Below are positions 18,490 through 21,400 of a DNA stretch of 64,000 bases, one piece after another (the stretch's first letter is position 1; every line of letters starts with the position of its first letter). Source of the DNA: an uncultured Polyangiaceae bacterium (lineage in GTDB: Bacteria > Myxococcota_A > Polyangia > Polyangiales > Polyangiaceae); assembly GCA_964577325.1 (NCBI GenBank), contig CAZNZA010000009.1:10698-74697 (forward strand), in the 5' to 3' direction. A program made the translations under genes and the position numbers. The notes under the pieces are model-generated. The model had not been told where the DNA came from. It ran no database searches and saw only the letters and a program-made list of their open reading frames with translations.

Positions 18490-21400
18490 GATGGCTTGAG
18501 CCAAATCCGCATCAGTGACAGCAGACGTTCGGCGTCTATAGGCTTAGTCACGTAGTCGTTGGCACCGGCCTCGAGACAAGCCTCACGGTCGTCGCGCATC
18601 GCTTTAGCGGTCAGCGCGATGATCGGTATGTCCTTGTAAGGACCATGTGTCGACCGAATCCGCCGCGTAGCCTCCAGGCCGTCCATCTCCGGCATCATGA
18701 TGTCGATCAACACCAACTCCAAGTCGGGTTTCTTGTGCAAGGTGTGAAGCGCCTCTTTGCCGTTGCGCGCCACCGAAACCTCCACGCCTTGCTTCTCGAG
18801 CACGCTTGTCAACGCGTATACGTTTCGTATGTCATCCTCCACCAGCAACACCCGCTTGCCACGCAGAGCCATCTCATTGCTCCGTGGTCGCAACTGCGCC
18901 CTCCGCTCCGAGGGCCCGATGGCGGAGTCGACCTCGTGCAAGAACATCGTCAACTCGTCCAGCAACCGGTCCTCCGATCGCACCCCTTTCAGGATGATCG
19001 TGTCCGAGTAACGTCGCAGTTCCTGCTCCTCGGCTGGCGTCAGCTCCTTGCCGGTGTACACCACCACACTCGGGAACGAATACGAGTCGTCTCGAGCCAT
19101 CGAGCGGAGCAGCTCCTGTCCCGAACCATCTGGCAGGTGTAAGTCCAAGACCACGCAGGCAAAGCTCGTCTTGCTCACGGCTTCGAGAGCTTCCGCCACG
19201 GTGCCAACGGCTTCAACATCCACGTCACGCTCTGCCAGAAGGGTTTGAACGGCTGTTCTATGTGCTTCATCGTCCTCGACAACGAGCACCCGAGGACGGC
19301 GATTCTGTTCGGTCAGCTTCTGCAGGACTTCACGCAGAGCCTCCTCATCCACTGGCTTCTTCAAGTATCCGACGGCACCGAGCGACAACGCGGTTTCCGC
19401 CTGGGCCGCCGTCGTGATCACGTGCACCGGAATGTCGCGCGTTTGCTCATCGCGCTTGAGCTGGCTAAGAATGGAAGCTCCAGGCTCTTTCGCCAGACTC
19501 TCTTCTACGACTATCGCTCGTGGTTGTGTGGACGCGGCCTTGGCCAGCCCGCTTTCGGCATCTTTTGCAACCACACAATCGAAGCCCCACGACCGAGCCA
19601 TGGTCGCCATGCGTTCATTCAAGCGGTCGTCAGTCTGTATCAGCAGCACTACCGGATTCGAGGGACGGCTGCGAGGCGAGAAGGGCAAATCATCCTCTAA
19701 CGCTTTGCGCGCCAACGATCCCAATCCCGTGGGCGGCTTGGATTCGCTTCCCACGCGCGGCGACAGCGACTGTACATCTGGCCCCTCCTGCTCGAGCTGG
19801 TCCGCACTGGATTCCGCTTCCATCTGGGGACGACGAGGCAGCCTGAGCGTAAACTTGCTACCTTCACCAACTTTGCTAGTGACGCCAATTTCTCCGCCCA
19901 ATCGCTTGGCCAAGTCTCGCGAAATGGTGAGCCCGAGCCCCGTGCCGCCATACCCCCGGCTAATTCGTCCATCCGCCTGCCGAAAGGCCTCGAATATGGC
20001 TTCGAGCTTGTCCTCGGCAATACCAATACCCGTGTCTTCGACACAGAACGACACCCCTTCGTCGTCCACGTCGACGCGTAGGGTTACTGAACCTCGCTTC
20101 GTAAATTTGCAAGCATTCGACAGAAGGTTCTTGAGGATCTGTTGAACACGGGCGCTGTCGGTTCGCACTATGGCGTCGGGCTGCGCTAGCTCGACCTTGA
20201 GCTCCAAGCTCCTCTCTTTCGCCAAAGGTTCGGTGATCCGCACCACGGGCCGCAGTAGGGCAGCGAGTTGAACGTCGTCGAAATTCATCTCCACAGCGCC
20301 GGCTTCTATCTTCGACAAGTCGAGCACATCATTGATGAGCTCCAGCAAGTCCCTGCCGCTCGCGTAAATGGTTTCCGCGAACTTGACCTGCTCCTCCGTC
20401 AGGTTACCGCTCTTATTCTCGGCCAGAGCCTTCGAGAGGATGAGACAACTGTTGAGCGGCGTTCGCAGCTCGTGGGACATACTGGCGAGAAACTCCGACT
20501 TGTATCGGTTGGCACGTTTGAGCTCGAGAGCACGCGCTGCCAGCGCCTCCTGTGCCTTCGCCAGCGCGTCCCTTTGTCTCACTAAACTCGAATTCGACGC
20601 TTCGAGCTCTTCTTTCCGTTCCTCCAGTTGCGCGTGAGCAAAACGGAGTGCCTCGCTTTGGGAAGCGAGCTCCTCGTTCGTCACCCGCAACTCCTCCTGT
20701 TGGGATTGCAGAGCCTCGGCCTGCATCTTGGATTCTTTGAGGAGGGTGCGCTGGATTTCTCGTTTCCTGGTCACCGCCACGGCAACGCCCATCGACTCCC
20801 CTGCCTGTTCGATGAGCCGCTCCGCCCTCTCTGACGGAGGGTCGAAAAACCCGAGCTCTACCACGGCTAGGACCGTATCCTCGTAGTGGCACGGGATGAG
20901 GGCCAGCTCGTGAACCGCTCCCGAGCCCGTAGCCGAGCGGGCGAAGAAGAACTTTTCGGGAAGCTGGCGAAGCCGCACGCTTTGAGGACGCGTGGCAGCT
21001 TGTCCCAACAAGCCTTCGCCCACGTCGAAAGTCTCCGGCGCGTCGTCGGACAAACCATGAGCGGCCCGCCTCACCCAGCGCTCGCCATCAAAATAGTAAA
21101 ATGCTCCCACCACTGCGCCGGTCGCCTGAGTCAACTCGTTCAGAAAGCGGCTGCCGACGACGGACATGTACGCTTCGTCTCGGGTCGATGCGATGAGGCT
21201 TACCAACCGCTCTCGGACCCAGCTCTGCAGGTCTAGAGCTGCACGTGCGGCTTCCTGTCCAGCCAAGGCGCGGCTGAAGTCACCTGCCAACTTGAGAATC
21301 TGCCGCCGAGAATGGCCACCCACCGCGAGCGAAAACAACAAGAGCAATGGCAGCGCCCCATAGATCGTCAACCCCGTCAGGGCGGCCAGTTCCTCGGCAC

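Follow-up and report, generated by a model that had tools for sequence, protein, structure and literature searches.

Glu-Glu heptads in the signalling helix of a CheR/CheB-linked hybrid kinase from a Polyangiaceae bacterium: probable methylation sites outside the chemoreceptors

Introduction

In Bacillus cereus the CheR-like methyltransferase RsbM methylates the hybrid kinase RsbK on its signalling helix (S-helix) in vitro, repressing sigma-B (PMC4574943). RsbK has the layout CHASE3-HAMP-GAF-S-helix-HK-REC, where HK denotes the histidine kinase and REC the receiver domain, and 127 RsbK-like kinases have been counted in 10 phyla; no esterase is paired with RsbM, an orphan methyltransferase (PMC4574943). 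The cfcABCDE cluster of Pseudomonas putida encodes the CHASE3/GAF kinase CfcA, CheR3, CheB3 and the products of further genes (PMC4951495), and the same cluster is found around homologues of BmsA, known from P. alkylphenolica (PMC8175716). CheR and CheB of the cfc cluster are reported to take no part in chemotaxis (PMC4951495, citing Garcia-Fontana 2013). Here we analyse a stretch of 64,000 nucleotides from an uncultured Polyangiaceae bacterium (the window; positions 10,698 to 74,697 of contig CAZNZA010000009.1, assembly GCA_964577325.1), in which the gene of a hybrid histidine kinase with Glu-Glu pairs in its S-helix is followed by cheR and cheB. These three genes probably form a module of the RsbK/RsbM or CfcA type, and the Glu pairs are probably methylation sites.

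The system is not new in kind, with RsbK/RsbM and cfcABCDE as precedents. As S-helix methylation is already established for B. cereus RsbK, the present case extends and sharpens a known principle. The methylation sites of RsbK are reportedly Glu439 and Glu446, seven residues apart, a distance that EEL heptads in succession would match. In a comparison based on the published description of RsbK rather than on its sequence, the kinase of the window is likewise a membrane hybrid kinase with the order sensor-GAF-signalling helix-HisKA-HATPase-REC and a CheR-family gene in the same operon, and in all RsbK-type kinases of Bacillota found by way of their CheR, three EEL heptads in a row occupy the corresponding part of the helix. 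The two differ in that RsbK contains HAMP and a single REC, whereas our kinase has no HAMP match and three RECs; the RsbY/sigma-B output is that of RsbK. Unlike RsbM, the CheR of this locus is followed by a CheB, as in loci of the cfcABCDE type, so that the modification should be reversible here. The kinase belongs to the same CHASE3/GAF family as CfcA, and the order of hybrid kinase, CheR, CheB and a second REC-containing kinase is that of the cfcABCDE and BmsA loci (PMC4951495; PMC8175716). CfcA signals to the diguanylate cyclase CfcR, but no such partner is seen beside this locus. The Pseudomonas loci that we found by way of their CheR (L151, L154 and L162) carry NEELQVQQEELKTANEELEEQ in the upstream kinase. 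A literature search returned no report of CfcA methylation, nor of an S-helix acted on by CheR beyond RsbK; in the part of the literature that it covered, the EEL heptads, their co-variation with CheR and the NEEL coil of fusion kinases were not found described.

Methyl-accepting chemotaxis proteins (MCPs) such as Tsr and Tar of E. coli follow the methylation consensus Glu-Glu-x-x-Ala-Ser/Thr, and neutralisation of charge at these sites is thought to change helix packing. The kinase resembles Tsr and Tar in presenting surface Glu pairs every seven residues on a coiled coil, beside CheR and CheB. It departs from them in several respects: MCPsignal is absent, an expected two-stranded helix runs into the DHp domain in place of an antiparallel four-helix bundle, Leu follows straight after each pair (EE-L-x3-[NQ]-EE-L instead of E-E-x-x-A-S/T), and the output is its own kinase, not CheA.

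The signalling helix and its Glu-Glu heptads

The features on which the analysis rests are the following.

18486..21899, minus strand: hybrid sensor histidine kinase, 1137 amino acids (translated open reading frame and Pfam)
20475..20747, minus strand: signalling helix (S-helix, coiled coil), residues 385-475, joining the last GAF helix to DHp helix 1
20691..20696, minus strand: Glu402-Glu403 (QQEEL), heptad positions b/c, candidate methyl-acceptor pair, pair 2 of the family consensus
20670..20675, minus strand: Glu409-Glu410 (NEEL), heptad positions b/c, candidate methyl-acceptor pair, pair 3 of the family consensus
20607..20612, minus strand: Glu430-Glu431 (KEEL), further b/c pair, weaker candidate
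20472..20474, minus strand: His476, phospho-acceptor in SMSHELRTP (translation and HisKA match)
17659..18489, minus strand: CheR-type protein-glutamate O-methyltransferase, 276 amino acids (Pfam CheR_N and CheR, 35.5 and 128.1 bits)
17078..17662, minus strand: CheB methylesterase, catalytic domain alone, 194 amino acids (Pfam CheB_methylest)

In Pfam the kinase matches GAF_2 (residues 250-374), HisKA (467-534), HATPase_c (581-690) and three Response_reg (REC) domains, with no match to MCPsignal (PF00015) or HAMP. The minus-strand translation of 20646-20708 is QSQQEELRVTNEELASQSEAL, kinase residues 398-418. This is the peptide of the initial annotation, except that the leading 'AL' quoted there lies just outside, at 20709-20714. 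The heptad coiled coil that it described as running into SMSHELRTP is likewise borne out. Leu recurs at each seventh residue from L397 to L460 in ten unbroken heptads that lead into His476, and AlphaFold2 (residues 370-548, 27-row alignment) predicts one continuous helix from 371 to 494, through His476, with a predicted local distance difference test (pLDDT) of 93-98.

With Leu placed at d, the a positions are polar (Q401, N408, S415, H422, K429, N436, R443, Q450, A457 and N464). All-Leu d positions combined with nearly all-polar a positions (20475-20747) amount to an unusually weak coiled-coil core. Over ten heptads, such a core may make the packing of the helix sensitive to surface charge. 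In this register the b/c Glu pairs lie on the outside of the expected two-stranded coil. The conserved feature is EEL-x4-EEL with Glu pairs at b and c, in its fuller form EE-L-x3-[NQ]-EE-L; the family consensus holds three EEL, and relatives read EELE-x-Q. Among 27 linked sequences N408 and L411 are invariant and E410 is at least 90% conserved. The pair E430/E431, four heptads past E402/E403 and three past E409/E410, occupies a position that reads A-E or Q-E in most relatives.

Repeats of EEL might arise by chance in a coiled coil rich in Glu, Leu and Gln, and the composition of this one (E 15/86, L 13/86) lends the idea some ground. In 100,000 composition-preserving shuffles of the 86-residue coil, the pattern EE[LM]x4EE[LM] appeared at a frequency of only 0.0013 (0.13%), so that the Glu-Glu heptads are real and not an artefact of composition. 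Chance is accordingly a very improbable explanation, and the distribution of the motif over kinases, given below, speaks against it as well.

The two genes downstream encode intact enzymes. The alignment of the CheR product to the solved structures 5FTW and 1AF7 takes in its SAM-binding motifs, with GCSTGEE and CRNVLIYF, and the Ser-His-Asp triad of CheB aligns as GGSAG/LHVAPG/NEDGAAG with GASTG/QHMPPG/GNDGAAG of 1CHD (Salmonella CheB), as also with 1A2O; both enzymes look active. The 194-residue CheB has no N-terminal receiver domain by Pfam. The coupling of cheR and cheB noted in the initial annotation is supported by the Pfam matches and by the gene junctions: the kinase stop overlaps the cheR ATG, and the cheR stop the cheB ATG, each as ATGA.

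Co-variation of the Glu pairs with CheR

Relatives were collected with the coil excluded from the queries, by searching 401 genomes of the phylum with residues 1-385 and 301 genomes of the class with the GAF domain alone (195-385). Together with four loci of this genome, the 130 fetched loci gave 131 GAF-HisKA kinases. CheR accompanies 66 of the 131, always immediately downstream on the same strand and never elsewhere. The unlinked group (n=37) comprises kinases whose fetched locus shows no CheR and extends at least 1.5 kb beyond the kinase in either direction. Two unpublished genomes (G586 and G579) came up in the search results but supplied no sequence, and none of the conclusions depends on them.

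Of the CheR-linked kinases 59/66 have the motif, and of the unlinked GAF-kinase relatives 6/37, the first figure being slightly conservative in that the strict regular expression misses L040, which reads EEI and in fact has the full motif. At pair 2 (E402/E403), Glu is found in 44/45 and 45/45 of the kinases linked to both CheR and CheB, compared with 14/37 and 30/37 of those unlinked. It is the first position of pairs 1 and 2 that discriminates, with Glu in 85-91% of linked and 38-43% of unlinked kinases; the second Glu, taken over all three pairs, is kept in 85-98% and 68-86%, respectively. Kinases of more than 1700 residues, whose helices are otherwise near-identical, show the same: the motif occurs in 10/10 linked and 4/20 unlinked members. 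The ten linked sequences all read QQEELQQTNEEL; the first pair is replaced by QQDEL, QQNEL, QQKEL or RQIEL in 16 of the 20 unlinked ones.

Linkage to CheR changes about 10 times on a tree computed from the GAF and kinase-core columns without the coil. Eight independent pairs of linked and unlinked kinases could be compared. The motif differed in the same direction in about 5.5 of them, in the opposite direction in 0 and not at all in 2.5 (median sign-test p 0.03). The association of motif and CheR thus survives phylogenetic control, on few events.

One alternative is that the EEL heptads characterise the signalling helix of this subfamily for structural reasons, for example as charge patterning that the helix switch requires, and that they are inherited together with cheR-cheB without being a substrate. 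The enzymes would then act on another part of the kinase, on the REC-kinase encoded by the fourth gene, on the unclassified upstream protein or on the single MCP of the genome. Several results agree with this. Most linked kinases fall into few clades and are largely kin by descent, linkage changes only about ten times on the tree, and about eight independent contrasts are available. The second Glu is well conserved in the absence of CheR too, so that its conservation must partly be structural. The full motif is retained by six unlinked kinases (L035, L112, L085, L094 and L082 among them). The first Glu is nevertheless lost preferentially without CheR, even among the near-identical long kinases, and no independent contrast runs the other way. 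RsbK, moreover, is methylated on its signalling helix (PMC4574943). We regard a purely structural role as unlikely. In four of the six unlinked exceptions (L035, L112, L094 and L085) the genome also has a linked paralogue among the fetched loci, so that action in trans is possible. On the linked side, seven kinases lack the strict motif, and L105 has no EE at all. The expectation of the initial annotation that the EE pairs would be kept only in CheR-linked kinases therefore stands for the linked side and fails in its exclusiveness, as six of 37 unlinked kinases retain them.

Five long kinases (L085, L094, L082, L092 and L030; 2100-2800 residues) keep the full QQEELxxTNEEL with no CheR within about 11 kb downstream. 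In other genomes the first Glu is missing from near-identical paralogues of these long motif-keeping kinases. For L082, L092 and L030 there is no CheR-linked paralogue among the fetched loci of the same genome.

CheR, CheB and the motif in this genome

The assembly, which is 94% complete, contains nine CheR and seven CheB matches and a single MCPsignal match (contig C27). The sole CheA/CheW cluster lies on contig C66 and has its own CheR and a full-length CheB; no MCP, CheA or CheW gene is present at the kinase locus. Four CheR genes stand alone, in each case immediately behind the gene of a large hybrid kinase (contigs C9, C13, C20 and C256), and three are part of CheB-CheR fusions (contigs C77, L135:2016-5342 on the plus strand; C108, L136; and C377). 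With nine CheR and seven CheB against one MCP and one CheA/CheW cluster, most CheR and CheB proteins of this organism cannot serve chemoreceptors. The same disproportion of one MCP to nine CheR matches argues against leaving the EEL heptads a structural role and assigning the enzymes another target.

We scanned the 74 HisKA kinases of the genome for EE[LIVM]x4EE[LIVM] within 110 residues before the H-box. Four kinases have the motif, and they are exactly the four that directly precede a CheR, compared with 0/64 unlinked kinases (Fisher p 1.8e-4). As these four kinases are paralogues, the association within the genome is suggestive and not decisive. Genome-wide, only seven open reading frames of at least 150 residues hold more than one [NQ]EEL, and in six of them CheR is part of the product or lies next to it. 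Both distributions are difficult to reconcile with chance repeats.

At one of the paralogous loci, L137 (C13:49063-60500), the hybrid kinase has HAMP and GAF domains and carries QQEELRRANEEL. CheR and a REC-kinase come next and CheB is absent, an RsbK/RsbM-like arrangement; further on lie a gene of the ceramidase family and one for a hybrid kinase rich in PAS domains.

Spread across phyla and a second protein design

A scan that used the CheR alignment alone, with one genome per species and no kinase information, yielded 80 loci from at least 14 phyla. These include Proteobacteria, Bacteroidota, Bacillota, Cyanobacteriota, Gemmatimonadota and Verrucomicrobiota as well as Bdellovibrionota, Desulfobacterota, Deinococcota and Acidobacteriota. 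In 70/80 loci a HisKA kinase ends at the start of CheR, and six of the remaining ten are cut by a contig end. The motif is found in 65/69 upstream kinases whose coil window is complete, and the coils average 3.6 EE[LIM] units each. The co-variation of EE pairs with CheR thus extends across phyla, and conservation over at least 14 of them is a further argument against chance. The RsbK-like kinases of Bacillota (about 880-1240 residues) have the motif in 10/10 cases, with three or more consecutive EEL heptads, and CheB is next to CheR in 0/10 of these loci.

Plasmid copies in Sphingopyxis, Agrobacterium vitis, Brucella anthropi and Cupriavidus read SEELQxQxEELRVxNEELEEQ. The four-gene cassette of hybrid kinase, cheR, cheB and REC-kinase is annotated on the Sphingopyxis, Agrobacterium vitis and Brucella anthropi plasmids; the Cupriavidus record is unannotated over this stretch. 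In L131 (Sphingopyxis plasmid) and L133 (Brucella anthropi pOANT02) the cassette adjoins IS5 or IS66 transposases and a recombinase gene. Its plasmid location beside transposases and a recombinase suggests that the cassette moves as a unit between replicons.

The heptad recurs in a different architecture. Two CheB-CheR-PAS-kinase fusions of this genome hold NEEL heptads in tandem in the coil that separates the CheR domain from PAS_10, five in the C77 protein and four in the C108 protein, and a search with the fusion coil found at least 7,928 proteins, nearly all of which, among the matches listed, carry CheB_methylest, CheR and PAS_10. Fusion kinases of this kind, listed in JGI as 'two-component system, chemotaxis family, CheB/CheR fusion protein', share with our kinase the tandem NEEL heptads near CheR and CheB. 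They differ from it in that the enzymes are fused and the heptads precede PAS_10 instead of the H-box. Judged by sequence, the EEL/NEEL heptad travels with CheR/CheB in two otherwise unrelated protein designs. This is hard to explain by a structural hallmark of one signalling helix, as the fusion kinases do not share the sensor architecture of the present kinase. We know of no described function for CheB-CheR fusion kinases.

Proposed reversible methylation of the signalling helix

We consider it fairly likely that the adjacent CheR methylates the Glu pairs of the signalling helix and that the receiver-less CheB reverses the modification, with a shift in helix packing and kinase output. The helix of residues ~385-475 connects GAF to the DHp helix that bears His476; like its counterparts in other dimeric kinases it should pair into a parallel two-stranded coil, if this kinase is a dimer too. 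Its outer face would then show Glu pairs in consecutive heptads, namely E402/E403, E409/E410 and perhaps E430/E431. The CheR encoded downstream would methylate one Glu per pair, and CheB, which is without a receiver, would strip the methyl groups. The change in charge could alter the packing or rotation of the helices and thereby shift the kinase/phosphatase balance at the H-box. By analogy with chemoreceptors the second Glu (E403, E410) may be the acceptor and the first a recognition determinant, which fits the preferential loss of the first Glu without CheR. As CheB lacks the receiver that gates the esterase, any feedback must differ from that in chemotaxis; of the five receivers that the two kinases contain, one might take part in it.

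In addition to the exceptions and the limited number of contrasts described above, three points weigh against methylation of the pairs, which is inferred here. First, both spacing and register set the motif apart from the methylation consensus of MCPs, and recognition by CheR therefore cannot be argued from MCP rules. The initial annotation had seen in the segment the likeness of a Tsr/Tar site. However, E-E-L-A-S is one residue short of that pattern, it stands in a different register, and its A-S is not conserved (E-x in relatives). What remains of the proposal that the EE heptads are a likely CheR/CheB target is carried by the co-variation (59/66 linked, 6/37 unlinked) and not by the MCP pattern given as its reason. 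Second, Gln is almost never found at the EE positions, unlike at many MCP sites. Third, a complex prediction with CheR, two copies of the coil-DHp segment and S-adenosylmethionine gave weak support (0.57, compared with 0.00 for the best control) and no interface. The mark applied was reached by 58/80 solved complexes and 2/110 mismatched pairs, but at scores of 0.60 or below only 7/80 solved complexes passed, together with both mismatches; in our runs contact agreement was at least 0% and partner pLDDT at least 88.

A deamidase role for CheB is unsupported, Gln being rare at the EE positions (at most 2/45). The QQ of the QQEE segment, which had been read as a sign of deamidation by CheB, was considered as such a site and rejected: its Gln lie at g and a, flanking the core, and are about as conserved in unlinked kinases.

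The heptads might instead dock or tether CheR and CheB, in the manner of the NWETF pentapeptide of Tar and Tsr, with the acceptor Glu elsewhere in the helix or in DHp. The repetition of the heptad, with three EEL in the consensus and as many as five NEEL in the fusions, would suit such a role, and the weak, interface-free complex prediction can be counted for binding as well. The fusions, furthermore, keep the heptads although enzyme and kinase are covalently joined, which fits a binding or an autoinhibitory element too. Against docking, CheR and CheB act on Glu side chains, the EE pairs are the most conserved surface Glu of the helix, and a tether has no need for strict Glu-Glu doublets at b/c. 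Mutations of Glu439 and Glu446 in the RsbK S-helix are also said to have altered its response. A docking function is, in our estimate, quite unlikely.

Should the Glu pairs be methylated, then covalent memory, as in chemoreceptors, would adapt the output of this kinase, of its three paralogues and of a very large family that spans phyla. This would also explain the surplus of CheR and CheB over chemoreceptors here and probably in other genomes. In practical terms, the analysis offers a sequence rule, EEL-x4-EEL between GAF and H-box followed by cheR, and names E402/E403 and E409/E410 as candidate residues. It is a reasonable possibility, rather than our expectation, that the EE-Leu heptads are a general, non-MCP recognition code of a dedicated CheR/CheB subfamily that covers thousands of kinases in at least 14 phyla. 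In that case chemoreceptor-style reversible methylation, as sensory adaptation or memory, would operate inside ordinary two-component pathways, both in stand-alone kinases with cheR(-cheB) after them and in CheB-CheR fusion kinases, and the presence or decay of the first Glu would predict such control from sequence alone.

Sensor domain and neighbouring genes

At the N-terminus of the kinase two predicted membrane helices flank a CHASE3-like sensor. Most close orthologues carry CHASE3 (PF05227), but the N-terminal 200 residues of this kinase miss the Pfam threshold of E 0.01; the sensor domain of this copy is divergent. Upstream of the kinase, on the same strand, lies an open reading frame of 282 residues (22007-22855, minus strand) that matches nothing in Pfam or NCBIfam. 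The gene that comes fourth in the conserved cassette is the following.

15912..17003, minus strand: REC-HisKA-HATPase kinase (Pfam)

This second kinase is present in 34/62 linked myxobacterial loci with enough flank, and it also follows cheB in the proteobacterial plasmid copies.

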